NCBI GenBank assembly: GCA_016000045.1
Contig: JAECQY010000002.1
Location: 95,777 to 159,776 of the forward strand
DNA: 64,000 nt
Origin: Myxococcaceae bacterium
GTDB taxonomy: Bacteria > Myxococcota > UBA727 > JABDBI01
Direction: 5' to 3'
Shown in pieces: positions 11,573 through 57,309 of this stretch. The notes under the pieces were generated by a model, which ran no database searches, was not told where the DNA came from, and saw nothing but the letters and a program-made list of their open reading frames with translations. The stretch's first letter is position 1; every line of letters begins with the position of its first letter. The translations under genes were made by a program, and so were the position numbers.

Positions 11573-12723
11573 TCAATGCGTCAAGGTCAGCAACTCACGA
11601 TACTGACTGCTCACACGTTTACCGTCAAACGCTATCGAATAAGCTTGAATCTTCGAACAGCCAGCGGTTCGCAAAGCGTAACAATACGCTTTCTCTTCGG
11701 GCAATTTATCGGCGGTCAGGCAATCTTGAATCAAGTCGTTGCTGGAGGTATTGATCCAATACGGCTTTAAGGCATAGTGGTGCTTCAGAAAGTTCAGAAT
11801 AGACCACGGATTGTAGATCGTCTGTCTCTTTCCACCAAAATAGTAACCATTGTACCAAGACTTCAACTCTTGCAGGTGTTCTGCAGGGCACATGGCTCCC
11901 ACTTCTTCCTCGGTAAATCCAAAATAGTCTAGTTAAAAATCTTCGCTAATATCATACACGCTGATGTTGTTCAGATCCGAGAACAAGCTTTCTTTGGAAA
12001 TCCGGGTAATGCCAGTGATCACAGCTTTGTACAAAGCCGTGTTGGATTTGAGCACCGCTCCTAGGACTTGCTTCAACAAAGCCACGGCTTCTGGAAAAAA
12101 TCCGTTCAAATAAGCATACTGCAAAGGCGTGTCGTATTCGTCAATCAGCACCCAAACTTTCTGGCCATGGTGCTTTTCCAAAAGCTCCGTCAAGCACATC
12201 AAAAAAGGGCCTATTTCAACACTGGGAAAGTCTCTCTGGGAATAGAGCTGCAGAGTTTGCTGGTCAAATAGACTCAATTGTTTCGAATGCTTTAAATACT
12301 CAAACTGACGATAGCAAGCGGAGATAGGGCTCTTCAAAGAAGCCTCGAGGTTCTCGATGCTCTCTGCTTTTAAGCCCTTAAATCCCAACATCATGACCGG
12401 GAACTTCCCCTCCAGCCCGCTAGAATCTGGGGGTATTGCTCGATTGCTAAGCCATCAAACAAAGGCTCATCACTACCCATAAAGTATTTGAGCATCGACA
12501 GATTCAGCGATTTGCCAAAACGTCGGGGTCTGGTTAGTAAAAGAACCGAGGAACCATCCCGAATAACATCGCGAATGAAGAGGCTTTTATCGCAATAAAA
12601 AAGCGGAGTTCCAGTATCGTCTACTGAAGTTCTCAGTTGTTTAAAATCATCGATGCCAATCGCATAACGCATAACGCATAACGCATAGGCTATGATTCTC
12701 TCACGCCTGGACTGATTAATCAA
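11573..12723 (-). pseudogene. AAA-ATPase-like (PF09820-type) protein with PD-(D/E)XK region, split into three ORFs by frameshifts
   Basis: Consecutive fragments 12391-12723 ('FYCDKSLFIRD...RPRRFGKSLNLSMLKYF'), 11933-12394 ('VWVLIDEYD','ITGITRISKESLF') and 11573-11902 ('WYNGYYF','YNPWSILNF','YWINTSSNDLI'). They are colinear with a single protein family but lie in different frames. Confidence 0.6.
12659..12688. repeat. heptanucleotide tandem repeat (ACGCATA) about 4 units
   Basis: 'cgcataacgcataacgcataacgcatag' read directly. It sits in the 5' region of the frameshifted ATPase gene. Confidence 0.8.
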
Positions 12724-13083
12724 TCGCTCTCCAGATACTCTTGACCAGGTTCGAAAACGGGTGAGACGAGTACCAGACCCTTCGAATCCAAAACGCCCTG
12801 AACCCCAGCGGTTCCCGCGAACTTAGAAAAATGGCAAGGCATGCAAGAGCAATCCCTTATTCTTGAGAAAAATACCTCATTTTGACCAACTCAAGCACGG
12901 GAGAATAAACCGCCCCTGGATCCTCAAAAAAAGGAGATTACGAGCCAGAACAGACTGTGGCACAACCTCAGCTACTGTTGCATCGATGCTGCGGTAGGAT
13001 TTTCAAATACAGACCTTCAAAACTCTCGAGCATAAAAACTCAGAAACAGTCCGCAGCCCTTCCTAATAAAAAAAGTAATGCTT

Positions 13084-13587
13084 TTAGTTGATATTGATTT
13101 TGATTTTGATCCTTGAAGTTGGTGTTTTTACGCATCTCACGTAGATTGCAAGCCCAACATTACACCATTGTGTCATACAGCCATAGATTGGATTTGTGGG
13201 CGATATGCAAAAATAGTCTTGAGCGTCTGCCTGAGTAGAGGTCCATGAAGGCCCTTCCCATTCTTGCGAGAATGGATGTTGCACCGTGTACTGATACAAT
13301 TCCCATGCATTTGGAAGGCGCCAGCCATCTCCTAAATTGGCGCAATATGCTTCTGCATTCAGGTAATTGTATGACAATGAATTACAATTCCCTTCCTCAA
13401 ACAGCAGTTCACCTACATTTTGGCACGAAAGCGTACAGTCACTACAGCTGTAAGGACTTATATTTGTGCAAGGACAAGAATTTCCTGGATTTGAAATTTC
13501 TGGTTTAGAAGCATTGCAACACAATGCTTGGTTTTGCCAGAAAAAAACAGATAAAATCGATATAAAAATAAATTTTTCGATTGACAT
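13084..13587 (-). CDS. small secreted Cys-rich protein with a DUF1566/Lcl C-terminal-like motif
   Basis: 167 aa. Signal peptide 'MSIEKFIFISILSVFFWQNQALC', many Cys, and 'AEAYCANLGDGWRLPNAWEL...SWTST...YVRCVK', which resembles the DUF1566 core. Confidence 0.5.
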   Translation of the reverse strand: MSIEKFIFISILSVFFWQNQALCCNASKPEISNPGNSCPCTNISPYSCSDCTLSCQNVGELLFEEGNCNSLSYNYLNAEAYCANLGDGWRLPNAWELYQYTVQHPFSQEWEGPSWTSTQADAQDYFCISPTNPIYGCMTQWCNVGLAIYVRCVKTPTSRIKIKININ

Positions 13588-13794
13588 GTCGGCCGTTTTA
13601 TCATTTTTAACTTATTTGTCAATGTATATTTAACGTCGTGTAGATGGAAAATATGCCTATGACTTGTAATTCTTAAGGGGACTATTGGTGCTGTTTTGAA
13701 CGAGCCATTTCAAGTCTTAAATATTTGAATCCCGATAGTACTTGAGTCAAGTCCGTGATTGTTTAGTCCCAGATTGTGATGGCATCTATGATGT

Positions 13795-14469
13795 GCCACA
13801 AGCAACTTGGGAGAGAATATGGGACAAGTCCTTCATGGATGCGCCAGAACGACCAAGGCGGTGCGTCGAGAGATACAAAAACAGCCAAACGAGCCTAGCA
13901 GCGCTTGCAAACTGATACTGTCTGAACGTTAAGACGGTTGCCAAATGGGAGAGGCGAGATTTTGTAGAAGATGTTTCGATAGGCCCCCAAAAGGGTCTAT
14001 CCACTGTTCTGCGCCCAGAACAGGAAGCTGCCATTGTAGCGTTTCGTAAACACACGCTATTGCCTTTGGATGACTGCCTTTATGCTCTGCAACGCAATCC
14101 CAGAACTGACTCGTTCGTCTCTTCATCGATGTTTGCAGCGTCATGGGATTAGTCGACTGCCCAGCACTGTCGAGCAGCCAAACAAGAAGGAGAAATTCAA
14201 AAATGATCCCATTGGCTATTTTCATATCGATATTACGGAGGTGCATACAGAAGAAGGTAAACTTTATAGGTTCGTAGCGATTGATAGAACCTCGAAGTTC
14301 GCCTACGCTGAACTCTTATGAAAAGTATGGAAAAATAGAAGCTGCCGAGTTTCTTAAACGCCTTGTCCAGGTTGTTCCCTATAAAATCCACACCCTTTTA
14401 ACAGACAATGGTGCACCAAGTTCAACAAAACTTCTATTTTTTCCGGACTCAATAATCTCGCAGATTTGA
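13795..14469 (+). mobile_element. IS481-family transposase remnant (frameshifted, C-terminally truncated)
   Basis: The HTH-like region 'RYKNSQTSLAALAN..LNVKTVAKWERR' is interrupted by a stop. Integrase-core fragments follow: 'FKNDPIGYFHIDITEVHTEEGKLYRFVAIDRTSKFAYAELL' and 'VPYKIHTLLTDNG', spread over three frames. Confidence 0.6.
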
Positions 14470-14949
14470 CTCTCAGCGACCGAGCAGCCACTTTATTGGG
14501 CCTCACTTTCGAAGAGCTGCAGCACTTTTTCTCCGATCACATCCAGCAAGCTATCCATCAAAACACTCTTTCAAAAGCCGATTTTATGCAATCCATGCAA
14601 GATTGGTACAACGGATACCGTTTCTCGCCTCACCTTCCTACTCGGGTTTATAATCCTTGCTCCGTCATTCGATGTTTACTCTCTGGCCGTTTTGAAAATC
14701 ATTGGTCACAAAGAGGAAGACTTCGGCACTTTTGACCTCGATCGAATTCAATTGCCCACCTTGCTCTTTCAGACTGGCTATTTAACGATTCAAGACTACG
14801 ACCCAAGAACCAAGAACTTTCATTTGGCTTACCCGAACAAAGAAGTTTTTGAAACCATGATCAAAATATTGGCTCCCATCCTTACAGGGAGTCTAGCCTT
14901 TGATCCGAAAGCCAAAAACATCGTCGACCACGTTTGGAGACATCTGTAG
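14466..14949 (+). pseudogene. C-terminal fragment of a second AAA-ATPase-like/PD-(D/E)XK gene
   Basis: 'WYNGYRF','VYNPCSVIRCL' and 'FQTGYLTIQDYD' are spread over two overlapping frames. The N-terminal ATPase part is absent, and the fragment abuts the IS481 remnant. Confidence 0.55.
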
Positions 14950-15112
14950 ACACGCTTCTGCCAAGCCTCTGCTCACTCGATTCAAACTCCTCAACATTTT
15001 CTAAGAAGGCTTAGGCATGCATTTGACCAAATTCAGAGCATTTGCTAGAAATACAAGCGATGAGTTTGTTTGCTAATGGCTTGAAAAATTTCAAGTCTGA
15101 TCGAGGTCCTCT

Positions 15113-16730: not shown

Positions 16731-17396
16731 ATGGCAGACGTGACGGACTTTATGCTCTTTCTAGAAGGCAACATCGGTGCCGGAAAATCAAGTTTTTTAA
16801 AGCTTCTTGGCGAAGATTTGGACTGCCGCATTGTTTTCGAGCCACATCAACGTTGGCAGTCCCTCCAAGGGGACCAAAATCTACTGGAACTCTTTTACAA
16901 AAGCCCAGAACGTTGGGCTTATACTTTTGAAACCTATACCTTGCTAACTCGCCTCATCGATCAGGAGCCGTTTCGGTCTCTAGAAGATCACCGAATGGTG
17001 ATCAACGAACGTTCGCCTTATTCCGGATGGTATTGTTTTGCTCAAAATACGCACGCCCAAGGGTGCATGAATTCTTTAGAATGGGGCCTCTATCAGTCTC
17101 TTTGCAAGCACCTTCTTCACCAGTATGCCATCGCTCCAACTGGATTTATCTATCTCAAAACCGATCCAGAAATATGCCTCCAAAGACTCCAAAAACGGGA
17201 CCGTCACGAAGAAAGCAACATGCCTCTTAGCTATCTCGAGCAAATCCACGATCAGCATGAATCCTGGCTTTCTCAAGAGTCTACGATCCCGGTTTTAACC
17301 TTGGATGGAAACCTGCCCTACCTAGACGATCTCGCAGCCCGCGATCACCTGGTGCAACTGGTGAGTCGTTTTTTTGGCGTTGGAAAAAAATCATGA
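16731..17396 (+). CDS. deoxynucleoside kinase (dCK/dGK family)
   Basis: P-loop 'EGNIGAGKSSFLKLL' and the 'ERSPYS' motif. 221 aa. Confidence 0.8.
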   Translation: MADVTDFMLFLEGNIGAGKSSFLKLLGEDLDCRIVFEPHQRWQSLQGDQNLLELFYKSPERWAYTFETYTLLTRLIDQEPFRSLEDHRMVINERSPYSGWYCFAQNTHAQGCMNSLEWGLYQSLCKHLLHQYAIAPTGFIYLKTDPEICLQRLQKRDRHEESNMPLSYLEQIHDQHESWLSQESTIPVLTLDGNLPYLDDLAARDHLVQLVSRFFGVGKKS

Positions 17397-18055
17397 ACAA
17401 TAAGAAGCAGTACTTTGTCGAAGGCAATATTGGAGTTGGAAAATCAACGTTTCTTCGACTGGTTGAAAAAATGCTGAATTGCCAAATGGTTTTTGAACCA
17501 CACGATCAATGGCAAGACATCAACGGCGCCGGCAATCTATTAGAGGCTTTCTACCAAGACACACCTCGTTGGGCTTACACATTTCAATCCTACGCTTTTA
17601 TTACTCGAATCTTGGAACAAAATCGAAAGGCTACCCTTAGCAACCACGAAGCCCAGATTATCGAGCGTTCTGTATTTTCCGATCGGCATTGTTTTGCTCA
17701 ATTGGCCTTTGAAGCAGGCAACATGAGCATTTTGGAGTGGCAAATTTATCAGCATTGGTTCGATTGGCTCGTCGGCGGCCATCATGCCTCTCCTGCAGGC
17801 TTTATTTATCTACGAACCGACCCAGAAATCTGCTTTCATCGCTTAAAAAAGCGAGCTCGTGCAGAAGAAATAGGCGTCTCTCTGGATTATTTAAAAGCCC
17901 TGCATCAAAAACACGAAGATTGGTTGCTCAATCAGGAAAAAGCTCCTGTTTTGGTTTTAGATTGCAACCTTGAGTTTGAAAACGATGCCAAACGCCAAGA
18001 AGAGCTTATGTCTTCGATTGTCGAGCGCTTCGCACCTGTTATCCAAAGAAAGTAA
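17393..18055 (+). CDS. deoxynucleoside kinase (dCK/dGK family), second tandem copy
   Basis: 'EGNIGVGKSTFLRLV' and 'ERSVFSDRHCFA'. ATGA start/stop overlap with the upstream paralog. Confidence 0.8.
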   Translation: MNNKKQYFVEGNIGVGKSTFLRLVEKMLNCQMVFEPHDQWQDINGAGNLLEAFYQDTPRWAYTFQSYAFITRILEQNRKATLSNHEAQIIERSVFSDRHCFAQLAFEAGNMSILEWQIYQHWFDWLVGGHHASPAGFIYLRTDPEICFHRLKKRARAEEIGVSLDYLKALHQKHEDWLLNQEKAPVLVLDCNLEFENDAKRQEELMSSIVERFAPVIQRK

Positions 18056-25358: not shown

Positions 25359-25519
25359 TTGTCTTGCTGCTCACCTTTTTTGTTGGAATCGTATTGACTT
25401 TTGTTGGCATCCTTCTTTTCACCTACAGTTTCCAACAAGGCGATTACGACACCCTCGATTCACTTTCGCTGCTGCCCCTCCAGGAGGAAGAACATGAAGC
25501 AGGTCAAGATCACCTATAA
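25355..25519 (+). CDS. ccoS: cbb3 oxidase maturation protein CcoS (small single-TM protein), not in the supplied ORF track
   Basis: The start ATG overlaps the ccoI stop (ATGA). Translation 'MIVLLLTFFVGIVLTFVGILLFTYSFQQGDYDTLDSLSLLPLQEEEHEAGQDHL' is one TM segment plus a 'GxxDxL(D/E)' acidic tail, as in CcoS/FixS. Confidence 0.6.
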   Translation: MIVLLLTFFVGIVLTFVGILLFTYSFQQGDYDTLDSLSLLPLQEEEHEAGQDHL

Positions 25520-27605
25520 CGACTCGGTCGTACGTCAATTTATTTGGGCATCCCTGTTCTTTGGTCTTGTGGGCATGCTGGTCGGTGTTTTAATCGCTGC
25601 ACAGCTTGCTGATCCGAGAGCAAGCTTTGGATTATCCTGGCTTTCTTTCGGAAGAATACGCCCACTTCATACCAACGCAGTGATTTTTGCTTTTGTAGGC
25701 AATATGCTATTCGCTGGCATTTATTATTCTACCCAACGTCTGCTCAAGGCTCGACTTGCCAGCGACTTTCTTTCCAGTCTTCATTTTTGGGGGTGGCAGG
25801 CGATCATTGTTGCCGCAGCCCTTACATTGCCTCTTGGAATCACGCAGTCTAAAGAATACGCTGAGCTTGAATGGCCCATTGATTTGGCTGTGGTTGCTAT
25901 CTGGGTTGTTTTTGGAATCAACTTTTTCTGGACTTTGGCCAAGCGCCGCGAGAAGCATCTATACGTTGCGATTTGGTTTTACATCAGCACCATTATCACC
26001 ATCGCAGTGCTTTATGTTGTCAACAATTTGGCCATACCCGTCTCATGGACTAAGAGCTACTCCGTATTTGCAGGCGTTCAAGATGCCTTGGTCCAGTGGT
26101 GGTATGGGCACAACGCGGTTGCCTTTTTTTTGACCACCCCGATTTTGGGTATCATGTACTATTTTATTCCCAAAGCGGCCGAAAGACCGGTCTACTCTTA
26201 TCGCCTTTCGATGATTCATTTTTGGTCGCTCATCTTTCTCTATATTTGGGCCGGACCTCATCACCTTCTCAATAGCGCTCTTCCAGACTGGACTCAGTCT
26301 ATGGGAATGCTCTTCTCAGTCATGCTTTGGGCACCCTCTTGGGGCGGAATGATCAATGGTCTTTTGACCCTTCGCGGAGCTTGGAATAAACTTCGAACCG
26401 ATCCTGTGTTAAAATTCTTTATTGCGGCAGTCACTTTCTACGGAATGTCCACATTGGAAGGGCCTCTTCTTTCTATCAAAAGTATTTCTGCTCTTGCGCA
26501 CTACACCGACTGGGTTGTGGGACATGTGCACAGCGGGGCACTCGGTTGGAATGGGTTCATGGCGGCGGGGATGTTTTATTGGCTCGTGCCAAGATTGTAT
26601 TCGCGAGAGCTTTACAGCAAAGCGGCTGCGGATTTTCATTTTTGGATCGCTACGTTTGGCATTGTTTTGTACGTCATGGCGATGTGGGTAGGAGGCATCA
26701 CCCAAAGCTTGATGTGGCGTGCCATGACACCTGAAGGCTCTTTGCTCTACCCCAATTTTGTTGAGACCCTGGTTGCGATTCGCCCCATGTATTGGATGCG
26801 CCTTGTGGGCGGCAGCCTTTATCTGTTCGGTTTCGTACTCATGATTTGGAATCTGCTGATGACCATGTCCTTGGGCAAAGCCACGGATACCACCGTCACC
26901 GTCCTTGAAACCTTCCCCGAAGCAGCTCCGCGCTCCAACCTGATTTTTTCACCTAACGATCACCGATTTTTAGAAGGCAGGCCTTTGCTGTTCACTGGCT
27001 TAGTCACCCTAGCCATTCTTGCGGGCGGAATCGCAGAGCTTATCCCCACTATTTTATCCGAAACTCAAGCGGTTGATGGAAAATGGCCCATCCGGCCTTA
27101 CACAGCGCTGGAGCTACACGGACGCGATATCTACGTTCGAGAAGGGTGTTACAATTGCCACAGTCAAATGATCCGCCCCTTCCAGGATGAAGAAATGCGC
27201 TACGGTGCTCATGCAAAATTAACGGACTTCATCTTTGACCACCCCTTTCAATGGGGAAGCAAACGGACAGGCCCAGATTTGCAGAGAGTCGGGAAAAAAT
27301 ATCCGAACATCTGGCATTTTTACCATATGCAGGATCCACGAGCTATTTCACCTGGCTCGAACATGCCAAGCTATGACTGGCTTTCGGAACAAAAAGTCGA
27401 TTTTTCTCTTAGCCCCATCCAAATGAACGCCATGAAACACGTTGGGGTTCCTTACTCGGAAGCGGAAGTTTTGAATGCTGAAATCTCGGCTCAAAGCGAT
27501 GCCAAAGCTTTGGCCAATGCGCTTCAAGAAGAAGGGGCTTCTTTAGACTATGATGCTGAAATGATTGCTTTGATTGCCTATCTGCAATCACTCGGAACTC
27601 GCTAA
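25494..27605 (+). CDS. ccoN: cbb3-type cytochrome c oxidase subunits I and II, fused CcoN-CcoO
   Basis: 'MKQVKITYNDSVVR' CcoN start, a 12-TM heme-copper core, then a TM anchor and a monoheme 'CYNCHSQ' CcoO domain in the same frame. I took the start at the internal Met of ORF 25401-27605. Confidence 0.9.
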   Translation: MKQVKITYNDSVVRQFIWASLFFGLVGMLVGVLIAAQLADPRASFGLSWLSFGRIRPLHTNAVIFAFVGNMLFAGIYYSTQRLLKARLASDFLSSLHFWGWQAIIVAAALTLPLGITQSKEYAELEWPIDLAVVAIWVVFGINFFWTLAKRREKHLYVAIWFYISTIITIAVLYVVNNLAIPVSWTKSYSVFAGVQDALVQWWYGHNAVAFFLTTPILGIMYYFIPKAAERPVYSYRLSMIHFWSLIFLYIWAGPHHLLNSALPDWTQSMGMLFSVMLWAPSWGGMINGLLTLRGAWNKLRTDPVLKFFIAAVTFYGMSTLEGPLLSIKSISALAHYTDWVVGHVHSGALGWNGFMAAGMFYWLVPRLYSRELYSKAAADFHFWIATFGIVLYVMAMWVGGITQSLMWRAMTPEGSLLYPNFVETLVAIRPMYWMRLVGGSLYLFGFVLMIWNLLMTMSLGKATDTTVTVLETFPEAAPRSNLIFSPNDHRFLEGRPLLFTGLVTLAILAGGIAELIPTILSETQAVDGKWPIRPYTALELHGRDIYVREGCYNCHSQMIRPFQDEEMRYGAHAKLTDFIFDHPFQWGSKRTGPDLQRVGKKYPNIWHFYHMQDPRAISPGSNMPSYDWLSEQKVDFSLSPIQMNAMKHVGVPYSEAEVLNAEISAQSDAKALANALQEEGASLDYDAEMIALIAYLQSLGTR

Positions 27606-33812: not shown

Positions 33813-35441
33813 TCAAGTCCAACCCTGCTTGAGTGCTCCTGTCTGGCTCTTGAGTGTATCTCGAACTTCCTGGAGATTACCCTCTGAACTTGCCTGCAAC
33901 AATCTTTTGTGCTGTTCTGACAGCCAAGCGTTCTTTTTCTTTTTCTGGACTCGAAGCCGCCAGCCTTGTAAAATCAATTCCGCTTCTTGTCGACTGATTT
34001 CAGAAACGTTCACTTCTTTCAATTGATACACCACCGTCGAGTGTCGAGGCAATACAATGTCAGACCATCCTTTTTGGTTCGGCAACTCCATCACTCGATC
34101 CATAAAAAACGCAAAATCTGAGTTTAATTCCGCGACAATATCGCTCGCCTCATGCACCAAAGCAGGATGTTGCACAAACGCTGCAAACAAAAGCTTTTCA
34201 GAAGCGCTCCAAACTACACGAGCGATTTCACGGGATATAGGCGCCGCAGCTTTAGGAAGAGCTCCCGGGCGAGCTTTCAAAACCGATTGAATCAACACGC
34301 GTTCGTCTTCTTTCAAGATAGACGAAGCCAATCGGACATACTGACGATTGACGAGCGGATCCGGGTGCACCGAAAGAACCGGCAAAAGTGCCTGCAACGC
34401 TTGAATCCGAGCGTGTACCCCTATCATCCCGTCGGATGAAGCTTGTTCAATCCGAACTTGAACGGCATCTTTGGCATTGGAAAGCAAGCCTTTCAGCGTC
34501 TCGTATTCTCCCTTTTGCCACAGAGAGTCCGGATCTTTATCAAGCATTTCGGCCGTTCGAACCTGAAATCCATTCGCGAGAAATAAAAGCAAGGCCTTCT
34601 CTTGAGCGGCCACACCCGCTGGATCTCGATCGAAACAAAGCACAACTTCCTGCGTATACTTCTGGATCAGGCTGGCGTGTCCTTGAGTTAAGCTTGTTCC
34701 ACAAGGCGCAACCGCTGGGATACCGCTGGCCAAAAAAGCCATCACATCAAAGTATCCTTCCACCACCATCACGCGGCTCTGCTTTTTAATCAGCGGAAGC
34801 GATTCGTAGAGCCCATAGAGAGTCTGGCTTTTGTCGTACACTTCACTGGAAGAACTATTGACGTATTTGGGTCGTGTCTTTTCTAAATTGCCAAAAATCC
34901 GCCCTCCGAATCCAATGATTTGACCACGAGGATTTCGAATGGGAATGGTAATTCGTGAATGAAAGAGAGAATCTGAGTTGGCTCCAAAACCCAATCCCAT
35001 TTTTTCGATAAATTCAGTGGGGTAGCGTCGAACTTGAGTCAAATATCGAAGCGGTTCGTCTTTTAAGTTTGCTAGAAAATAAGACTGGTCACGCTCCAAA
35101 GCATCTAAAGACAAATGATCGACTCGAGTTTTGGCATTCCCCTGAATCACAATTCCATGTTCAGCAGCCAATTGCCGCACGATATCCATGAAAAGCTGCC
35201 CGCTTTGCTTTTCTAAAAAGCTAAAAACATCGCCACTGGCTCCACAGCCAAAACACTTAAAGAAGCCCTTATCAGGACGAACGTTGAAGGAAGGGCTCTT
35301 TTCGGCGTGAAAAGGACAAAGGCCCAAGTAGCTGGGCCCCTGTTTTTTCAATTTAACGGTCCGTCCAATGACTTGGACCAAGTCCGTACGCCGCTTGATC
35401 TCGGCGATTGCGTCTTCGAGCTTCACGATACTCCTAAACAC
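33813..35441 (-). CDS. dnaG: DNA primase DnaG
   Basis: Zinc ribbon '[22 protein letters not shown]' and a TOPRIM 'EGYFD' domain. Confidence 0.9.
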
Positions 35442-35911
35442 CTCTTAACACAGGCTGAGACACGATTTCCATCCGCTTGACCGGCTGCACTCGCCAGCAC
35501 CGCTTTCATCACTTTGCCCATGTCCTGAGCTCCCGATGCTCCCAGTAACTCGATGTGTTCTCGCACAAGACGTTCCAAAGCACGTTCATCCAGCTGAGCT
35601 GGCAAGTAAGACTCGATTACCGATAATTCAAAAGCTTCTTTTTCAGCTAAATCCATGCGCCCACCCGCTTTGAACGACTCCACAGATTCTCGGCGTTGTT
35701 TAGCCATTTTCTTTAAGACATCCAGAGCCTGCAAATCATCCAAATCAGTCCCTTCCGAAGACCCATGGGTCCGAGCGGAGATGGCCCGATTTTTCAGTTC
35801 TGTGCGCACCAACGCCAAAACGTCTTTTTTCGGATCGCGTGCTTTCATCGCATCCTTCCAGTCCAAGCTAACTCTATCGTGTAATGAAATCATAGTCATC
35901 TCATCGCACAT
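35423..35911 (-). CDS. GatB/YqeY-domain protein
   Basis: 162 aa with the YqeY pattern. Its position upstream of dnaG-rpoD is conserved. Confidence 0.7.
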   Translation of the reverse strand: MCDEMTMISLHDRVSLDWKDAMKARDPKKDVLALVRTELKNRAISARTHGSSEGTDLDDLQALDVLKKMAKQRRESVESFKAGGRMDLAEKEAFELSVIESYLPAQLDERALERLVREHIELLGASGAQDMGKVMKAVLASAAGQADGNRVSACVKRCLGVS

Positions 35912-36036: not shown

Positions 36037-36996
36037 TTGATACGTCCCATTTCTACCTCTATTGTCCTTGTTTTTGCACTATCCACAGACTTATTGGCTT
36101 GGCTAAAAGATCCTAGATCTGAAGTCGCCCGAATCAGCCGACAAATCCGAGACAGCGTTCGAGAAGTAAAACCTTTTTCGCTGGGCTCGTCTTCGGTGCC
36201 GCTGATTCGCACGAACAATAACTACATCGAGCAAATGAGCCAACGACTCAAACGCATCCAAGAGCTCCGGCTCGAGATTCACAGATTGCACCAGATAGGA
36301 AAAATGTCGGAGGCTCTAGAAGCCGAAGAAGAGCTCTTGCGCCTGATTGAGTTGGGTGCTTTGCCTGAGAAGTTGCAAAGAACAGAAGCTTGGAAGATTG
36401 GATTGGGCCTTAGCGAAATGCCGGGTGAACTATTTTTGCCTACGTCTGGGAAAAAGTATGGGGTACCAGAACTACGCTTGCTGCCCGGCACAGATGCACC
36501 ATCCGTTGAACCGAACCCTTCACCCGCGGATGTTGGCCAAGCTTCTCAAGCTGAACAAGAGGCTCAGGGCAAAGAAGCATCCATTGATGGCGCTATCCGT
36601 GTTGTTCGTACGCAAGCGATGTCTGTGGACCCACTCCGATCGGTAAGAAGGTCATATACAGGTCCACGTGAGCCCAGGAACATTACTGCTCTGAAATGGG
36701 ATTGCACCAATTTGGAAAAAATGACCTTTCAAGAAGCGCAAGCTTATGCCACAAGCCGTTTAGCGGAAGGATGGGAATTGCCAACCATTTGGGAGCTGGA
36801 AGCACTGTATCGACAGCAACACAGAGAGCTCGGAAACGATTGCAACGAAGCCTCGTATTGGTCTGAAACAGCAGTGACGGATGTGATTATCGGTGGTGCT
36901 TGTCATTGGGTCTTCGATTTTGAAGATGCCGATGTTTACGGTGGCAGCAATTTTAGCCACCATTTAGTTTGCTTAGTGCGGGATTTAGATGAGTGA
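36037..36996 (+). CDS. secreted DUF1566/Lcl C-terminal domain-like protein, paralog A
   Basis: Signal peptide, coiled region, and a C-terminal 'FQEAQAYATSRLAEGWELPTIWELEALY...YWSET...HLVCLVRD'. Confidence 0.55.
   Translation: MIRPISTSIVLVFALSTDLLAWLKDPRSEVARISRQIRDSVREVKPFSLGSSSVPLIRTNNNYIEQMSQRLKRIQELRLEIHRLHQIGKMSEALEAEEELLRLIELGALPEKLQRTEAWKIGLGLSEMPGELFLPTSGKKYGVPELRLLPGTDAPSVEPNPSPADVGQASQAEQEAQGKEASIDGAIRVVRTQAMSVDPLRSVRRSYTGPREPRNITALKWDCTNLEKMTFQEAQAYATSRLAEGWELPTIWELEALYRQQHRELGNDCNEASYWSETAVTDVIIGGACHWVFDFEDADVYGGSNFSHHLVCLVRDLDE
36175..36500. repeat. left arm of a ~330 bp inverted repeat, the conserved N-terminal coding region of the DUF1566 paralogs
   Basis: Reverse complement is near-identical to 39406-39733. 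For example, 'gggtgaactatttttgcctacgtctggg' here matches 'cccagacgtaggcaaaaatagttcaccc' there. Confidence 0.7.
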
Positions 36997-37014
36997 GCCT
37001 CCCCAGAGAGAGAA

Positions 37015-37959
37015 TTGGGCTATGCCCTAACACAAAAGGGTTGCAGGGCTTCCCAGACGTGCTACGACTTGAGAATGGATCTATCAATCATTTTGGGTTC
37101 GGTCGCTATCTTGCTACTTTTTCCAATGACTCTTTTTACGGTCCGCCAACAAACTTCGATTTCGATTGAGCGCTTTGGTCGCTTTGTTCGAGTAGCCGGA
37201 CCCGGGCTTAACTGGAAGCTGCCTTTCATTGAACGCATTGCACGCCGCCTGGATCTTCGCATTCAACAGATGGTCGTTGAAGTAGAAACCAAGACCAAAG
37301 ATAACGTCTTTGTGCGTGTCCACATCGCTGTTCAATATTTTGTTCTTCAAACTCGATTGTTTGATGCTTTTTACAAGCTGAGCACTCCAGGCCCTCAAAT
37401 CGAATCGCATGTTCTAGATATCGTTCGAGGCCAAGTTCCTAAGATGGACCTGGACCATGTATTTGAAAATAAAGATACCATCGCTTACGCTGTTAAAGAC
37501 GAACTGACAGAGTCGATGACCGAGTTTGGCTACGGCATTCAAACTGCTCTGGTGACGGAGATTGACCCTGACCAGAAGGTAAAGTCTGCGATGAACGATA
37601 TCAACGCGGCCCTACGAGAACGTACCGCTGCGAATGAAAGAGGCGAAGCGGAACGGATCTTGGTTGTCAAGCGCGCTCAAGGCGATGCCGAAAGCAAAGC
37701 TTTGCAAGGAACCGGGATCGCCAATCAACGCAGAGCCATTATCGATGGTCTCCAGCAATCAGTCGATTTATTTCAAAAAGCCATCCCGGGAACAACGGCC
37801 GATGATGTGATGAAACTAGTCCTCATGATTCAATACTTGGACACGTTGAAAGACATTGGAGCCACTGGAAAATCGAACACGGTGTTCCTCAATCACTCAC
37901 CCGGTACTCTGGGTGACCTTGTTCAACAGATTGCTGCCGCTAATCTAGCATCGAAATAA
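37015..37959 (+). CDS. SPFH/band-7 (stomatin/prohibitin/HflK-C-like) domain membrane protein
   Basis: N-terminal TM then an SPFH core 'IERFGRFVRVAGPGLNWKLPFIE', with an Ala/Glu-rich coiled C-terminus. Confidence 0.8.
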   Translation: MGYALTQKGCRASQTCYDLRMDLSIILGSVAILLLFPMTLFTVRQQTSISIERFGRFVRVAGPGLNWKLPFIERIARRLDLRIQQMVVEVETKTKDNVFVRVHIAVQYFVLQTRLFDAFYKLSTPGPQIESHVLDIVRGQVPKMDLDHVFENKDTIAYAVKDELTESMTEFGYGIQTALVTEIDPDQKVKSAMNDINAALRERTAANERGEAERILVVKRAQGDAESKALQGTGIANQRRAIIDGLQQSVDLFQKAIPGTTADDVMKLVLMIQYLDTLKDIGATGKSNTVFLNHSPGTLGDLVQQIAAANLASK

Positions 37960-38832
37960 CAATCGCGAAGGAAATACTTCTTCCAAAACCTTCAGAGTAC
38001 CTCGATGAGATTGGAGTTGAATCTCCGCTTCTACTCCAATCGGAACAGGCCAATTAGGCTGTTCATGACCCACCGGCAAACCCGTCAACAGAGGAATTTC
38101 AAAGCTCTGGCATCGTTCTTCAAAAACCTTAAACGGTTCGTCTCCACAATCCGTTAAATAACCCAAAACGATGGCTTGAATCCCTTTCAAAGCCCCGGCC
38201 GCCCAAAGGTGCGTTAGCATACGATCCAAGCGATAAGGCTTTTCACCGACATCTTCTAAAACAAGAATGGTTCCGCACAAAGATGGCATGGACCGAGTTC
38301 CGAGCAACTCAACAAGCATGGATAAATTGGCCGCAAGCAACGTCCCCCGTATCCGATCTTTCAAGTAAGTCTTTCTGAGACTTAAGCTCGGGTATGCAAC
38401 GTCTCGAGCTTGTCCGTTCAAGGCCAGCAAAAGCGCTTGGCTCGACTCTGCAGATTCCTCACTCAGTTGCGTGATTAAAGGAGCATGTAGACTCTTTAAC
38501 CCGTGCAAAGCCCAGAAATGCATCATCAAAGCTGTGGTATCGGAAAATCCAACGATCGGAGCAACCGGTTCGCAGTCTTTCAGCATGGGTAAAAGCCGTG
38601 TCATGCCATAGCCGCCTCGGACCGCCCAAATCGCGTCGGCTCTCTCTTCTGAGCAGGCCCGCTGAAGCTCACGGAGACGCTCTTCATCAGAACCATTCAA
38701 ATAGGTCTCTAGGCCTATGCGCAGAATCGGATTGCTCAAAATTTCGCAGCGATTTTGGAGCAGCCATTGAGCCCCTTGCTCATATTGCTGCTCATTAAAC
38801 CGAGACGAAACTGCAAAAGGGATTATCTTCAT
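37945..38832 (-). CDS. LD-carboxypeptidase (peptidase S66, LdcA-like)
   Basis: 295 aa. Ser-nucleophile region 'IVGFSDTTAL' and a C-terminal 'GHEQPNWPVPIG'. Confidence 0.75.
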   Translation of the reverse strand: MKIIPFAVSSRFNEQQYEQGAQWLLQNRCEILSNPILRIGLETYLNGSDEERLRELQRACSEERADAIWAVRGGYGMTRLLPMLKDCEPVAPIVGFSDTTALMMHFWALHGLKSLHAPLITQLSEESAESSQALLLALNGQARDVAYPSLSLRKTYLKDRIRGTLLAANLSMLVELLGTRSMPSLCGTILVLEDVGEKPYRLDRMLTHLWAAGALKGIQAIVLGYLTDCGDEPFKVFEERCQSFEIPLLTGLPVGHEQPNWPVPIGVEAEIQLQSHRGTLKVLEEVFPSRLLFRC

Positions 38833-38863
38833 GAATCGGCTCCATCAGCAACATGAAATGGAA

Positions 38864-39883
38864 TCACAATACCTCCCGCACCAAACGTACTCGATACCCG
38901 ACGAAAACATCACCGACGCAGGCGATACCGTCTCTGAAATTGAAGGCCCAACAGAAACCAGCGTAGCCAACGACCGAAGTGTCTGACCAATACCAGGCTC
39001 CATCATCATCTTCTCCTAATACACTACGCTGCTGATACAACCCTTCTAATTCCCAAATTGTCGGCAATCGCCACCCTTCTCCGGAATGGCCACTCGCATA
39101 AGCCTCGGCTTCTTCGAAAGTCACTCTTCTCAAGCTTTTACGGCCCAATTCCCATTCCAGGGTGGGTAGATCTTTGAGCACACGAAAGCCTTGATACCAA
39201 TTCTCTAAACCTCTGAGCGGGTCTACTCGCATTATTTGAGTGCGAGCAACATGAGTAATGACCTGACTCGATACTCCTGTTGCGTGGACCCTTTGATTAA
39301 CTTGGGAGGCTTGAGAATGAACGGGTTCATTTGGACTCGAAGCTCTCGGCAGCGTTTGTTCGCCGCTCGTGGCTGAAGATTCGGGCTGAACTGCTGGTTC
39401 AATCGCGCCGGGAACCAAATATAATCCTGGTGCCTGATACTTCTCCCCAGACGTAGGCAAAAATAGTTCACCCGGCATTTCGCTAAGGCCCAATCCAATC
39501 TTCCAAGCTTCTGTGCTTTGCAACTTCTCAGGCAAAGCACCCAACTCGATGAGCCGCAAGAGCTCTTCTTCGGCTTCTAGAGCCTCTGAAATTTTCCCTA
39601 TTTGGCGCAACCTGTGAATCTCGAATCGGAGTTCTTGCATGCGCTTAAGCCGTTGACTCATTTGTTCGACGTAGTTATTGCCCATGCGAATGAGCGGTAC
39701 CCAAGCAGAACCGAGCGAAAAGGGCTCCACTGCTCGAATGCTATCTCGGATTCGTATCCCAATTCCAGCGATTTCAGACTCTGCATCTTGCAGCCAAGTG
39801 GGACAGTGCTGAAGCAAGCTCCAAGCCAATAAGTTGGGAGATAGGACAAAAATAAAGAAAATAGGAGCAAAAACCTGATTCAT
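38864..39883 (-). CDS. secreted DUF1566/Lcl C-terminal domain-like protein, paralog B
   Basis: 'VTFEEAEAYASGHSGEGWRLPTIWELEGLY...YWSDT...YRVRLVRE'. The N-terminal 100 aa are about 85% identical to paralog A. Confidence 0.55.
   Translation of the reverse strand: MNQVFAPIFFIFVLSPNLLAWSLLQHCPTWLQDAESEIAGIGIRIRDSIRAVEPFSLGSAWVPLIRMGNNYVEQMSQRLKRMQELRFEIHRLRQIGKISEALEAEEELLRLIELGALPEKLQSTEAWKIGLGLSEMPGELFLPTSGEKYQAPGLYLVPGAIEPAVQPESSATSGEQTLPRASSPNEPVHSQASQVNQRVHATGVSSQVITHVARTQIMRVDPLRGLENWYQGFRVLKDLPTLEWELGRKSLRRVTFEEAEAYASGHSGEGWRLPTIWELEGLYQQRSVLGEDDDGAWYWSDTSVVGYAGFCWAFNFRDGIACVGDVFVGYRVRLVREVL
39406..39733. repeat. right arm of the inverted repeat
   Basis: See left arm. It encodes 'AVEPFSLGSAWVPLIR...LPTSGEKY', against 'EVKPFSLGSSSVPLIR...LPTSGKKY' in paralog A. 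Confidence 0.7.
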
Positions 39884-40081: not shown

Positions 40082-41446
40082 ATGAAAAAGTTATTACTAC
40101 TTGGTTCATTTGCTGTCTTTGCCATTTGCCTCTGTGCTCACTTCATCGACCGGCAACCGAGTAGTCTATGGACTCAGCAGTTGACCTCCGAAAATAAATC
40201 TGTCTCGATCCCATCGCTGGCTCCTTTGGTTGAAAGAGTCAAGCCTGCCGTTTTAGTAGTCACGACAGAGTCTTTGTCCAATCACCGACATCGGCTGCCT
40301 TACGGTTACTCGGAACCGAAACAGCAAGGTTTAGGAAGCGGCTTTATCATTCACCCATCCGGACTTGCTCTGACAAACAATCATGTGATTGCCAATGCAA
40401 CGCGAATCCGAGTCAAAGTGGGAGGCAAGCTTAAGGAATACGATGCTGAGATAGTCGGTACTGACCCCGACACGGACGTCGCTTTGATTCAAATCCAAAG
40501 TGCTAAAAAAGACTGGCCAGTCATTCCTTTAGGAGAATCCGGCAAAATGCTCGTAGGAGATTTCGCTGTCGCCATCGGCAATCCATTGGGACTGGATTAC
40601 TCGATCTCTTTTGGGCCGATCTCTGCCCTAGGACGCCGGGACATTCAGCCTTCGGGAAAACGTGGCTTGTTTGATTTTATCCAACTCAGCGCCCCAATCA
40701 ATCCTGGAAACTCGGGCGGGGCTTTAGTCAACCTTTCCGGAGAAGCGATCGGAATCAATACCGCCATCAATGCAGCCGGCCAAGGAATCGCTTTTGCCAT
40801 TCCGATAGACCAAGTTAAGCAAATTTTGCCTCAACTCAAAGCTCATGGCAAAGTAACTCGTTCGAGCCTTGGAATCCGGGTGATCGACGTGTCTCCTGAG
40901 CTTGCTCAAGAACTGGGTTTACCCCAAGCCCACGGTGTTTTGATCCGAGAGGTGTTAGCGAATTCTACCGCCATGCGCGCAGGATTACAGCCAGGCGATG
41001 TTATTACCGAATTTGAAGGCAAAGTACTCACCAACGCCCAAGCGCTCTTGGTAGAAACCGGGTTCGCTGGAGTCGGCAAAACCGTTCAGCTCAAATTATT
41101 CCGAGATGGCCAGTATCAAACCGTTCGCCTTAGCCTAGAAGCTCCCCCAGCACCCACAGAGCTAAAACCCTCGCAGTTACAAGAACTCGAAGCCTTGGGG
41201 ATTCGAGGCATTCAACAGGAGGATGCACACTATCCAGGGGTGCGCATCACAGAAGTGAACCCGTATTCTGCCGCTCATATAGCCGGTGTAGAGCCGGGCG
41301 ATGTCATGGTTCGGATCAATCGTCAAATGATAGACAGCGTCGAACGGTTGGCAATTACCCTTCGTTCCATCTCGCCCGGAAGCCCTTTTCGTGTTTTGGT
41401 CCGCCGCGATAATCGCTCTCTCTTGCTCATTGTTCGAAAGCCCTGA
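40082..41446 (+). CDS. periplasmic serine endoprotease DegP/HtrA with two PDZ domains
   Basis: Signal peptide, catalytic 'TNNHVI' (His), 'DVALIQ' (Asp), 'GNSGGAL' (Ser), and PDZ regions. Confidence 0.85.
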   Translation: MKKLLLLGSFAVFAICLCAHFIDRQPSSLWTQQLTSENKSVSIPSLAPLVERVKPAVLVVTTESLSNHRHRLPYGYSEPKQQGLGSGFIIHPSGLALTNNHVIANATRIRVKVGGKLKEYDAEIVGTDPDTDVALIQIQSAKKDWPVIPLGESGKMLVGDFAVAIGNPLGLDYSISFGPISALGRRDIQPSGKRGLFDFIQLSAPINPGNSGGALVNLSGEAIGINTAINAAGQGIAFAIPIDQVKQILPQLKAHGKVTRSSLGIRVIDVSPELAQELGLPQAHGVLIREVLANSTAMRAGLQPGDVITEFEGKVLTNAQALLVETGFAGVGKTVQLKLFRDGQYQTVRLSLEAPPAPTELKPSQLQELEALGIRGIQQEDAHYPGVRITEVNPYSAAHIAGVEPGDVMVRINRQMIDSVERLAITLRSISPGSPFRVLVRRDNRSLLLIVRKP

Positions 41447-48044: not shown

Positions 48045-49262
48045 TTAGCATTTTTTCCGGATTCTGGGAACTCCTATTAGCAAAATCAGAGCAAAGAACC
48101 AAAGATGGAAAGCTCCATTCGATGCATTGCAACCCGACTGTTGCCTGGCTGTGCTCAATGAACCAGAGTTAAAAGAGCTTGCCAAAGAAGCTGTCTCAAT
48201 GCAGGCCGATTCATGCACTGGATGGCTTTGGTTGTCTTTTAGGGGGTAACAGACTTCGGTATCCGTACAACCGCTACCCGTACTGCAATCCGTATAACAT
48301 AAAGAGCTTCCGCTTGAATTGGTCACACAAAGAAGCCCCACCGCGCATTTTCGCCAAGAACAATCCTCCGCCAAATGGCTGGATAAACTCGACCTCGTTT
48401 GGAAACTGCAAAACCCAGAATCACAAACCATCAGACTCCCAGAGCACTCTGAATCCGTCGCACAAGGCTTGGAACAGTATTGTTGAGCGTCTACAGTACG
48501 ACATTCAAATTCGGATTGACAACGGTGATGGCCCGAACAAGAGTCTCCCAACACACCCGGTGTCGTACCCGGATAAAGCATACGAATCGCCGATTGTTCG
48601 TCAAATCCTGGCTTATCGACCATGAAAACCGCTTGAGCGCTCATCAACTGTTCGCAAGCTACACAAGGATGCCCAAGGCCTAATACATGCCCAAATTCAT
48701 GCGAAAATGTTGCTTGAGGTGCAAAGCAATCAGCGAGATTCGTACAATTCGGATCCCAAACAATACCCAATTCGGGGCAAGCGTTGAGAACCATATCAGC
48801 ATCTTCCAAAATACGAACGGAACTTCCCTGAGCAACCGAGTACACAGGCAAGGTAACCCCCAGAATTCCCTCTGGGCCTGCTCCAATCAAGCTCATCCAC
48901 TCATCACGATCTCGTACCCAAAAAACATCGTGGCTGCTTGCATCAGTTCCGAATGAACGCTGGGATCCTACAGAACTTCTTAATGCAAGAGACGCATTGG
49001 GAGTTGCTTGCCAATCTTCTAGAACTCCTTGAACCAAAGATAGCCAAGTATCTGAATCGATGCCGTTTGGAAGCCCCTCCATATCGAGATAGAACTGCAT
49101 GCTGGAACCTGGCCAGCGCGGAGCGGATGCAGCTGTACAACCCAGTTTAGGGCTGTGTTCATCTCCCCAAACATTGCCTTGCGCATCGATGCTATTGCAA
49201 AGATAGCGATAGGAAACAGACGGCCAAGCCACTAGAACGCACAAGAATGCCCACAACCTCAT
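48045..49262 (-). CDS. secreted metzincin (matrixin/M10-like) zinc metalloprotease with a Cys-rich C-terminal region and a MYXO-CTERM-like tail
   Basis: Signal peptide, 'HEFGHVLGLGHP' (HExxHxxGxxH), a candidate Met-turn 'IRMLYP', repeated C..D.EC..C modules, and a terminal 'SGCNASNGAFHLWFFALILLIGVPRIRKKC'. Confidence 0.7.
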   Translation of the reverse strand: MRLWAFLCVLVAWPSVSYRYLCNSIDAQGNVWGDEHSPKLGCTAASAPRWPGSSMQFYLDMEGLPNGIDSDTWLSLVQGVLEDWQATPNASLALRSSVGSQRSFGTDASSHDVFWVRDRDEWMSLIGAGPEGILGVTLPVYSVAQGSSVRILEDADMVLNACPELGIVWDPNCTNLADCFAPQATFSHEFGHVLGLGHPCVACEQLMSAQAVFMVDKPGFDEQSAIRMLYPGTTPGVLGDSCSGHHRCQSEFECRTVDAQQYCSKPCATDSECSGSLMVCDSGFCSFQTRSSLSSHLAEDCSWRKCAVGLLCVTNSSGSSLCYTDCSTGSGCTDTEVCYPLKDNQSHPVHESACIETASLASSFNSGSLSTARQQSGCNASNGAFHLWFFALILLIGVPRIRKKC

Positions 49263-55163: not shown

Positions 55164-55610
55164 GTGATTATTGCGGAAAATCGGCGCGCGAAGTTTGAAT
55201 ACGCCATTTTTGAAACCCTTGAATGCGGAATTGTTTTGCTTGGAACGGAAGTCAAGTCGCTTCGAGACCGACATGTCAATTTCGCGGACTCTTATGCTCT
55301 TCTTAAAAACCAAGAAGTCTTTTTGATCGGACTTAAAATCGAGCCTTACCAATATGGCACCCACGTCAATCATGAAACCGATCGAACTCGAAAGCTTCTT
55401 CTCAATCGATCAGAAATTGAAAAATTAGCAAAAGAAACGGATCGAAAGGGCCGAACACTCGTTCCTCTCAAGCTTTATTTCAAAGAGGGAAAAGCGAAAG
55501 TCTTAGTCGGTGTAGCAGAAGGCAAAACAAAGTCTGATAAACGCGATACCATCCAACAACGAGAAGGAGACCGTGAGATTGCCCGAGTCATGCGTCGAGG
55601 CCAACGTTAA
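55164..55610 (+). CDS. smpB: SsrA-binding protein SmpB
   Basis: 'IIAENRRAKFEYAIFETLECGIVLLGTEVKSLR' is the canonical SmpB N-terminus. Confidence 0.9.
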   Translation: MIIAENRRAKFEYAIFETLECGIVLLGTEVKSLRDRHVNFADSYALLKNQEVFLIGLKIEPYQYGTHVNHETDRTRKLLLNRSEIEKLAKETDRKGRTLVPLKLYFKEGKAKVLVGVAEGKTKSDKRDTIQQREGDREIARVMRRGQR

Positions 55611-55635
55611 GCTCAAAGCTTCCTTATTGACAAAC

Positions 55636-57309
55636 ATGAAAGCCTTTTCAATCCTCATTCTTATGTATTGGATGAAATTTACTTTTATCTTTTTGCTCGT
55701 TTTACCAACCGATTTAGCAATTTCTGCGCGAACTTTCGGCATTATTTCACGAACCCGCTATCAGATTCTCTCCTGTTCAGGAGCCGGGAACAATTGCTTT
55801 TTCCATGCACTCAGGCAAGCGGGAATCGATATCCAGCGCCAAGATGTCATCCATTTTTTAACCCGAAATCGAGAACACCCCACCATACAAACCGCAGTCC
55901 ACCGAGTAGCGGCCCAAGAACTTCTGACATTTTCCGGAGAACTCGAAGCACCCATCCAAGAGTTTCGGGCTTATCTCGAGCAACATCCTTCCGAAGCCAT
56001 GGCTAACCTTGGTTCCAACGAAGATCTTTATTCGTGGTTTGTCGAACATCTTCAAAATGGAAATCCCATGCCGTTCGAGCGAGATTGGCAAGAGCTGCCA
56101 GGTCCTGATTTTTTTGAACTTCTTGGGCAAGCATTTGACTTCGATGTCCAGATTCTGTCTCGTTCCCAGCAGATTCCAAGCCATTACGAAGTCATTCGTC
56201 AATTTCAAACTCCGACTTCAACCCGCAGACGTCACGTTGAATTGCTTTTTCAAGCTGGCGATATAGGTCATTTTGAACTGCTCGTTGATCCAAATGCAGG
56301 AAGCCCGATTCCAGCAACCGTTCAAGATTATTTTCACAATATTATCACGCCCTATACATCGGGCGCTCTTTATACAAATGCTAGCCTTCGGGCAAGCGGA
56401 AATTTTGGACAAATCTTCTATGTCAAAAATCGAGATCGAAGCTACGCTGCGAAATGGGTTATTGGCCAGAATTCGGATTCATTTCGAGCCGAACAAGAAG
56501 CCTTGCGAAGACTGCATTCTCCCTTTTGCAACGGTCTGATTGAACTCTTTGAGAGTTTATACGATGGGAATTACCTACTCCTGCTCGAGTGGGTGGGAGG
56601 AGGAAGTCTCCGCGAAGCCATTAAAACTCAAGAGTTCGAAGACTATCAAGTCGTTGCGATTGCGACTCAACTACTCCTGGCCTTGAAACATATTCATGAT
56701 CAAGGAGTGATCCACTGCGATATAAAACCCCAAAATATTTTGCTGAACCCAGGCGGAAATTATGCGCAAATCTGCGATTTCGGGCTCGCTGAAATCGATT
56801 CAAAGCTCCACAAGCAGGGCGTTTTAAAAGGAAGCCCGAACTACATGGCTCCAGAGGTGATTCAAAACGGAATGATAACTCCCCAAGCGGACATCTGGGG
56901 GCTCGGGGTAACACTCTATCGGCTCTCTTTTAAGCGGCATCCCTATCCGAGTAACACTTTCATGGAGACGAGGGAAAACGTCTGGCAGCCCATCGCATTT
57001 CCAAGATCCCAGCGCTTAACCCCCGTGTTAGAACGCATGTTTGAGACAGACTATCAAAGACGCCCAAGTGCAGAAGATCTCTTGAATGAGCGGCTCATTC
57101 AAGTCTTTTTGACCATGCTTGCTCACGTTGATCCAAGAGTTCCAAGCGAACATCGAGCATCTTACCGCGATCAAATACGGTTGATCGATTGGTCGCAGCC
57201 TATCTCTCAATCCCATCAAAATCCACCGTTTGTGATCGCCGTTAATTACCTTAATGGTTCGTTTACCCTCCTCGTATCTTGGAAAAACTGGACTGCGATA
57301 ACCGAATGA
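55636..57309 (+). CDS. secreted/membrane-anchored OTU-like cysteine protease domain fused to a Hanks-type Ser/Thr protein kinase
   Basis: N-terminal hydrophobic leader, 'SGAGNNCFFHALRQAG' (OTU Cys motif), a candidate His motif 'IGHFELLV', then the kinase subdomains 'YAAKWV','HCDIKPQNILL','DFGLA','GSPNYMAPE','DIWGLGVTLY'. Confidence 0.6.
   Translation: MKAFSILILMYWMKFTFIFLLVLPTDLAISARTFGIISRTRYQILSCSGAGNNCFFHALRQAGIDIQRQDVIHFLTRNREHPTIQTAVHRVAAQELLTFSGELEAPIQEFRAYLEQHPSEAMANLGSNEDLYSWFVEHLQNGNPMPFERDWQELPGPDFFELLGQAFDFDVQILSRSQQIPSHYEVIRQFQTPTSTRRRHVELLFQAGDIGHFELLVDPNAGSPIPATVQDYFHNIITPYTSGALYTNASLRASGNFGQIFYVKNRDRSYAAKWVIGQNSDSFRAEQEALRRLHSPFCNGLIELFESLYDGNYLLLLEWVGGGSLREAIKTQEFEDYQVVAIATQLLLALKHIHDQGVIHCDIKPQNILLNPGGNYAQICDFGLAEIDSKLHKQGVLKGSPNYMAPEVIQNGMITPQADIWGLGVTLYRLSFKRHPYPSNTFMETRENVWQPIAFPRSQRLTPVLERMFETDYQRRPSAEDLLNERLIQVFLTMLAHVDPRVPSEHRASYRDQIRLIDWSQPISQSHQNPPFVIAVNYLNGSFTLLVSWKNWTAITE

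Follow-up and report, generated by a model that had tools for sequence, protein, structure and literature searches.

In the 64,000-nucleotide stretch of Myxococcaceae bacterium DNA analysed here (assembly GCA_016000045.1, contig JAECQY010000002.1, positions 95,777 to 159,776; hereafter the window), two convergent paralogous genes, termed A and B, carry the arms of an inverted repeat in their 5' regions and enclose genes for an SPFH protein and an LD-carboxypeptidase. A and B are probably old members of one gene family that share a short patch of gene conversion, and the locus is probably not a dedicated inversion switch. The patch is ~145 nt long, displays a sharp 3' boundary, is homogenised at synonymous sites and is restricted to the A/B pair. 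The coordinates of the repeat, the patch and the surrounding genes are collected in Table 1.

Table 1. Features of the A/B locus (window coordinates) and divergence between A and B in three consecutive segments (dS, synonymous divergence; dN, non-synonymous divergence; aa, amino acids)
Feature	Position	Strand	Description
Gene A	36037..36996	+	319 aa, TTG start; signal-peptide-like leader, helical N-module, P/S/Q-rich linker, C-terminal Lcl_C/DUF1566
Gene B	38864..39883	-	339 aa, ATG start; paralogue of A, identical architecture
Left arm of inverted repeat	36098..36528		431 nt, 81% complementary to right arm; encodes A N-module
Right arm of inverted repeat	39368..39798		encodes B N-module
High-identity tract, A copy	36310..36453	+	144 nt, 6 mismatches, 96% identical to B; dS 0.13; holds exact run 36382-36450
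High-identity tract, B copy	39443..39586	-	holds 69-nt exact run 39446-39514 and 32-nt exact run 39555-39586
Upstream N-module segment	36100-36309		synonymous differences/sites 26/48.7; dS 0.93; dN 0.16
Core segment	36310-36453		synonymous differences/sites 4/33.2; dS 0.13; dN 0.018
Linker segment	36454-36528		synonymous differences/sites 7/20.3; dS 0.46; dN 0.43
SPFH/Band_7 gene	ORF 37015..37959, called 37126-37959	+	277 aa; Pfam Band_7 98.9 bits; inside the segment, unrelated to the repeat
LD-carboxypeptidase (peptidase S66, LdcA) gene	37945..38832	-	Pfam Peptidase_S66 and S66C; inside the segment
yqeY-like gene	35423..35911	-	Pfam YqeY 148.5 bits; left flank, divergent from A
HtrA/DegP-type serine protease gene	40082..41446	+	Pfam Trypsin_2 and two PDZ; right flank, divergent from B

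The two arms align without gaps, lie 2,839 nt apart and constitute the sole long repeat that a repeat finder recovered across the window. Identity along the arms is 60-87% up to ~36308, 90-100% in 36308-36457 and 57-77% beyond, and at a 95% threshold the near-identical core comprises 160 nt (36291-36450). The longest exact run, in which 36382-36450 is the reverse complement of 39446-39514, measures 69 nt and is accompanied by two 32-nt exact runs. When mismatch positions were shuffled, a 69-nt run occurred in 5e-6 of shuffles over the full arms and in 1.4e-4 of those limited to the N-module, the N-terminal module of ~150 aa that defines the family, and a 141-nt window with four or fewer mismatches occurred in 0 of 200,000. 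The N-modules of A and B are ~73% identical overall at the protein level, presenting 71% identity over A residues 22-91, upstream of the patch, and 96% over residues 92-139. A sequence-only reading of this DNA had described 36175-36500 as the near-exact reverse complement of 39406-39733 and the N-terminal ~100 residues as almost identical; both descriptions are overstated, since the arms extend over 431 nt at 81% and near-identity is limited to the ~144 nt, and the corresponding residues, given above. A discrete high-identity block, the absence of which that reading had set as part of its own refutation, is nevertheless present. A short imperfect inverted repeat also occurs within the A N-module (36246-36267 and 36331-36352; 22 nt, 73% complementary, with a GAGCTC-containing centre) and is probably a chance match.

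Divergence between A and B was estimated by a Nei-Gojobori count in their ungapped register. The contrast in synonymous differences between the upstream N-module and the core yields a Fisher p of 1.6e-4. Upstream of the patch dN/dS is ~0.17, which indicates that both copies are under purifying selection; because silent sites within the patch are homogenised as well (dS of 0.13 versus 0.93), constraint at the protein level is insufficient on its own to account for it. The 5' 560 nt of A and B were also aligned with those of two family members encoded beyond the window, P0002 (locus L001) and P0006 (locus L003). Over the first 300 nt the A-B pair displays 59-83% identity, not above that of other paralogue pairs. 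In columns 301-450, A and B are 90-100% identical and all other pairs 52-90%, and in columns 391-450 the values are 93-100% for A-B versus 52-80% for P0002 or P0006 compared with A or B. Protein comparisons follow the same course, with A-B identity of 71% upstream of the patch (other pairs up to 80%) and 96% within it (others at most 86%). Only A and B carry the patch, which the other family members compared lack. Mosaic identity of this kind has the signature of a gene-conversion tract between otherwise old paralogues, and, as the patch is both pair-specific and homogenised at silent sites, the comparison favours such a tract over constraint or recent duplication. The suggestion of the sequence-only reading that gene conversion acts within the arms was thus borne out, as ongoing or at least past conversion.

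A and B are convergent open reading frames (ORFs) whose stop codons lie 1,867 nt apart, with the SPFH and LD-carboxypeptidase genes between them; these two genes themselves converge and overlap by 15 nt. The paralogy and convergent arrangement of A and B, the identity of the two enclosed genes and the C-terminal motifs quoted for A and B had all been recognised from the letters of the sequence, and they were confirmed by the ORFs, their translations and Pfam. The Lcl_C domain (PF07603) of B scores 37.2 bits over residues 242-336, above the gathering score of 34.9, and that of A 34.8 bits over residues 216-315, 0.1 under the cut-off; despite this score the A domain is clearly homologous to those of B and P0002 (73 bits). 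The A protein is identical to NCBI entries MBH1989121 and MBH2006083, and the B protein to MBH1989124 and MBH2006086. Each gene has its own start codon, a purine-rich stretch resembling a ribosome-binding site and a hydrophobic, signal-peptide-like leader. Homology between A and B reaches only ~15-20 nt 5' of the start codons, the upstream intergenic regions being otherwise non-homologous. A scan for promoter and terminator consensus sequences revealed no convincing site 5' of A or B, and an Rfam scan returned tRNAs only. Neighbours of the locus include rpoD, dnaG, yqeY, htrA, genes for tRNA-Arg and tRNA-His, a VTT/DedA protein gene, ssb and prs. GC skew at fourfold-degenerate sites (+ strand coordinates) is +0.18 in B, the maximum of the window, where the next highest value is +0.07 and nearly all others are negative, and -0.04 in A. 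For genes on their strand and at their position, both have an unusual composition, which may reflect relocation or exchange with copies elsewhere.

The strongest competing explanation, which we consider unlikely, is that the arms serve as substrate for a functional flip-flop inversion that would place each diverged Lcl_C domain behind the promoter, leader and N-module of the other gene and so vary a secreted or surface protein in the manner of a shufflon. Several features of the locus speak in its favour: the convergent paralogues bear intragenic inverted repeats within their 5' thirds, their upstream intergenic regions differ, the conversion tract proves that the arms have interacted in the past, and 69 nt of exact identity, or 144 nt at 96%, suffices for RecA-dependent recombination by the length requirement of minimal-homology studies. 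In addition, a nearby recombinase is absent from some programmed inversions (PMC9881135). The locus was compared with the criteria for programmed inversion provided by the same survey. As in the R64 pilV shufflon, the Type I restriction-modification hsdS invertons such as SpnIII and the Bacteroides SusC/D shufflons (PMC9881135), the inverted repeats lie inside opposed homologous coding sequences, within A (+) and B (-), and inversion would exchange variable 3' parts.

In contrast with these systems, A/B lacks a nearby recombinase: no integrase, resolvase, invertase, recombinase or transposase domain was detected by Pfam in essentially all ORFs of at least 150 aa of the 64-kb window, where the sequence-only reading had likewise seen none. 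The strongest predictor of gene-altering programmed inversions is a silent, 5'-truncated partner (PMC9881135), whereas A and B are both 5'-complete, so that both C-terminal domains would be expressed in either orientation and the repertoire would remain constant. A swap would place the same two C-terminal domains on very similar N-modules, altering only their pairing with the non-homologous upstream regions. Typical programmed loci are compact (PMC9881135), whereas the A and B coding sequences are separated by 1.87 kb and the A/B segment encloses two unrelated housekeeping genes. Shufflons use short conserved crossover sites, whereas the A/B repeat is a domain that has diverged apart from one conversion patch, and the homology fit for recombination is limited to 69 exact nucleotides or ~144 nt at 96%.

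Orientation is also uniform in the available, if thin, data. Two independent metagenome-assembled genome (MAG) assemblies of one strain cross the locus unbroken, in the same gene order and orientation and with A and B intact and non-chimeric, and no chimeric A/B protein cluster was found among the 5.8 billion proteins searched. Fourfold-site GC skew is -0.18 in the SPFH gene and -0.19 in the LdcA gene (~145 sites combined, roughly 2 standard errors from zero), compared with -0.24 +/- 0.11 for + strand genes and -0.10 +/- 0.12 for - strand genes across the window. The internal genes thus resemble the flanks and show no sign of the opposite orientation, which constitutes modest evidence that the segment has been mostly in its present orientation throughout its history; frequent flipping should erase the skew. 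The shufflon-like, domain-swapping system proposed by the sequence-only reading is therefore not sustained, given the lack of a recombinase in the window, two 5'-complete genes, short homology, a single orientation without chimeras and a flank-like skew.

Other considerations weigh in the opposite direction. It is possible that a recombinase encoded beyond the 64-kb window acts in trans. The conversion tract shows that the arms recombine, so that crossover-associated inversion is possible, and rare RecA-mediated inversion is physically possible. Exchange could in principle alter the regulation of each C-terminal domain, the upstream regions being non-homologous beyond ~20 nt. All comparison data derive from one strain, both MAGs and both Logan samples being 100% identical, such that orientation and the timing of conversion are without comparative or population evidence, and the k=31 Logan unitigs are blind to orientation across the 69-nt exact repeat. 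GTDB species-representative genomes contained no match to the N-module peptide patterns or to the degenerate AEEELLRLIELG DNA pattern, and JGI metagenomes no match to the 69-nt core or the N-module patterns; they therefore supplied no related strain or species for a comparison of orientation. Exact-protein look-ups of LdcA, HtrA, SSB and SPFH retrieved the same strain only, and those of A, B and the family proteins P0004, P0005 and P0007 retrieved no match.

A recent inverted duplication, of which the patch would be the part yet to diverge, is very improbable. When N-modules are compared outside the patch, A and B do match one another best, by a small margin (71% versus at most 67%), but near-saturated dS directly upstream of the patch is incompatible with recent origin. 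Moreover, identity between the Lcl_C regions of A and B is only 44%, and another paralogue is nearer in both cases: domain 2 of P0002 for A (52%) and P0004 for B (58%). This explanation was rejected on the mosaic identity profile. Selection without recombination, in the form of stronger purifying selection on the invariant AEEELLRLIELGALPEK motif, is hardly credible: the start of the patch does encode this motif, the most conserved of the family and invariant in 7 aligned sequences, but paralogues encoding it differ at many synonymous sites, and the 69-nt run falls in a family-variable part of the protein, where A and B are 92% identical and other members 9-58% identical to A or B. It was rejected as contradicted by dS, the DNA comparison of the paralogues and the protein identity matrix.

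An assembly artefact, in which the reads of one paralogue built both copies, is equally hard to credit. Although the source is a MAG and three family ORFs in two MAGs (P0007, P0009 and P0011) are partial, being interrupted by contig ends elsewhere, the k=31 unitigs stop exactly 30 nt inside the exact runs, as expected only if the reads share k-mers in both contexts. One Logan unitig from SRR9332771 coincides exactly with window 36421-39475, thus ending 30 nt inside each 69-nt exact arm, and the right-flank unitig begins 30 nt inside the 32-nt exact run 39555-39586. Over 27126-47959 the contig of the sister MAG matches the window at 100% identity, and paralogue-specific differences continue right up to the patch. 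The artefact was rejected on the unitig ends, the second MAG and the paralogue-specific flanks.

Gene conversion between old paralogues may be pictured as follows. A and B would be lineage-specific family members that happen to flank two housekeeping genes convergently, and their N-modules would have diverged like those of other paralogue pairs, to ~71% amino-acid identity and near-saturated synonymous divergence. As to mechanism and donor, we infer that fairly recent, non-reciprocal homologous recombination between the inverted copies transferred ~145 nt from one copy to the other. The route may have been RecA-type repair, with break repair templated by the other copy, as for tufA/tufB. In Salmonella enterica these inversely oriented paralogues undergo conversion about once per 1e5-1e6 generations (PMC5485169), and they resemble A and B as inverse paralogues on one chromosome that exchange contiguous tracts non-reciprocally, synonymous sites included (PMC5485169). 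They differ in that the tuf genes, separated by 762 kb, share ~99% identity across 1.2 kb, whereas A and B are ~80% identical, lie 3 kb apart and share a patch of ~145 nt. Recombination frequency depends on the length of homology, and crossover inversion at 69 nt of exact, or 144 nt of 96%, identity is expected to be rarer than tuf conversion and far below the rates of phase variation. The patch could occasionally permit a reciprocal crossover, yielding a 3-kb inversion and A/B chimeras, as a rare, unprogrammed by-product.

The family to which A and B belong, which the sequence-only reading had not recognised, comprises about 11 genes and was found in a single uncultured 'Myxococcaceae bacterium' lineage. 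With A as query, a word-indexed search of 5.8 billion proteins returned seven clusters only, all annotated 'MAG: Myxococcaceae bacterium', and a second such search with the N-module profile returned one partial protein only. HMMER with the N-module profile against 1.84 billion representatives identified 9 sequences at E<1e-30, one at 2.5e-9 and two marginal matches. One MAG (locus tag I8H75) contains 11 ORFs with the N-module. The GroEL of the organism is 85-89% identical to that of a few uncultured MAGs and ~75% identical to that of MAGs carrying the labels Deltaproteobacteria, Myxococcales or Myxococcota. Work on diesel/crude-oil enrichment cultures (PMC7012980) cites SRR9332771, one of the source samples. 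Among the marginal matches is P0016 (410 aa; L007:4521-5753, GCA_037134495.1; E = 7.6e-4). It comes from a related MAG with a GroEL identity of 88%, where its gene lies in a different genomic context, close to genes for a Lon protease and a DUF4215 protein. The N-module may be older than the species but fast-diverging.

Family genes beyond the window comprise P0002 (L001:10001-11428) and P0006 (L003:10001-11485), and the proteins P0004, P0005, P0010, P0012 and P0013 also belong to the family. Members other than A and B are solitary among housekeeping genes, for example adjoining ruvC or dnaE. Within ~10 kb downstream of P0002, L001:15408-21428 (GCA_015999675.1, JAECQV010000006.1) holds fragments of IS630-like and DUF4096 (IS5-type) transposases, and another Lcl_C gene downstream of P0002 runs past the end of L001. 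Some family copies, unlike A and B, are found in surroundings rich in mobile elements.

All members display a hydrophobic leader (MNxIFxSIFFVFALSPNLLAW...) followed by a helical region with the invariant AEEELLRLIELG motif, and most carry Lcl_C at the C-terminus. The region between these elements varies. P0013 contains a FYVE zinc finger (51 bits) and a weak MLKL_N match, P0006 an RRM_1 domain (41 bits), P0010 a weak match to the PARP catalytic domain (23.7 bits, below cut-off) and P0002 a second Lcl_C domain, and A and B are minimal members with a P/S/Q-rich linker only. AlphaFold2 modelling of A from a 7-sequence family alignment gave a mean pLDDT of 40.6, with only the helices at ~63-107 reaching 73-79. 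In the PDB, neither the N-module profile nor B gave a significant match by sequence.

The closest functional analogue of the C-terminal domain is that of Legionella Lcl, which has a C-type-lectin-like fold, forms trimers and binds sulphated glycosaminoglycans (PMC11162425). Lcl and A/B have in common an N-terminal helical (coiled-coil) region, a spacer, a C-terminal DUF1566/Lcl_C domain and secretion, which for A/B is predicted. No Gly-X-Y periodicity of the kind found in the Lcl collagen stalk is visible in the A or B translations; their spacer is instead rich in P/S/Q/A and predicted to be disordered, as judged by low model confidence, and other family members carry a payload domain. The N-module is unrelated to Lcl and lineage-specific. 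On the basis of the leader and the Lcl C-terminal fold, the A and B proteins are most likely secreted or surface-exposed binding proteins.

Modular, polymorphic families of secreted effectors have conserved termini and variable middles. The A/B family resembles them in that the N-module and the C-terminal domain bracket variable inserts (FYVE, RRM_1, weakly PARP-like and weakly MLKL_N), and differs in having no known secretion system, immunity gene or host. Its architecture suggests a family of modular secreted effectors or adhesins, so far uncharacterised, in an uncultured deltaproteobacterial or Myxococcota-like lineage from hydrocarbon enrichments.

Several other features were observed in the window. 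The region 11443-15112 is of lower GC content (0.43-0.44), has few long ORFs and may be a decayed or mobile-element remnant; at 11933-12394 it contains a 153-aa fragment whose match to the 'Predicted AAA-ATPase' model is confined to the C-terminal part of that model. Tandem deoxynucleoside kinase (dNK) paralogues at 16731-18055 contain a diverged 46-nt direct repeat (17000-17045 and 17656-17701); such nucleoside salvage is frequent in host- or prey-dependent bacteria. A 734-aa ORF at 25401-27605 is a fused ccoNO, joining the COX1/CcoN subunit I of a cbb3 oxidase to the FixO/CcoO mono-haem subunit, and has FixP, FixG-like and DsbD_2-family genes 3' of it. The stretch 55573-59624 encodes a Ser/Thr protein kinase of eukaryote-like type (578 aa) and, downstream and overlapping it, a 781-aa ORF without Pfam match; two more ORFs, of 325 aa (4342-5319) and 405 aa (48045-49262), likewise lack a Pfam match.

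The process recorded in A and B is of a known kind, the concerted evolution of inverted paralogues, and the locus provides a clean, small example of a conversion tract between diverged inverted paralogues. It also serves as a caution that inverted repeats within genes are not enough to make a locus an invertible switch. A broader conjecture, which seems to us improbable, is that the N-module and Lcl_C act as recombination 'handles' for shuffling payload or binding domains, with the A/B patch caught in mid-exchange and the A/B locus perhaps flipping rarely by homologous recombination, thereby joining the two lectin-like domains anew to two 5' regions under different regulation. If true, it would represent a recombinase-independent diversification of putative host- or prey-directed effectors, some of them with FYVE, RRM, PARP-like and MLKL_N-like payloads; as a route to effector diversity it would require that exchange among the modules be frequent. 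The wider interest lies in the gene family rather than in the repeat: the family is previously undescribed and lineage-restricted, and its N-module is joined to Lcl_C and sometimes to domains of eukaryotic type.

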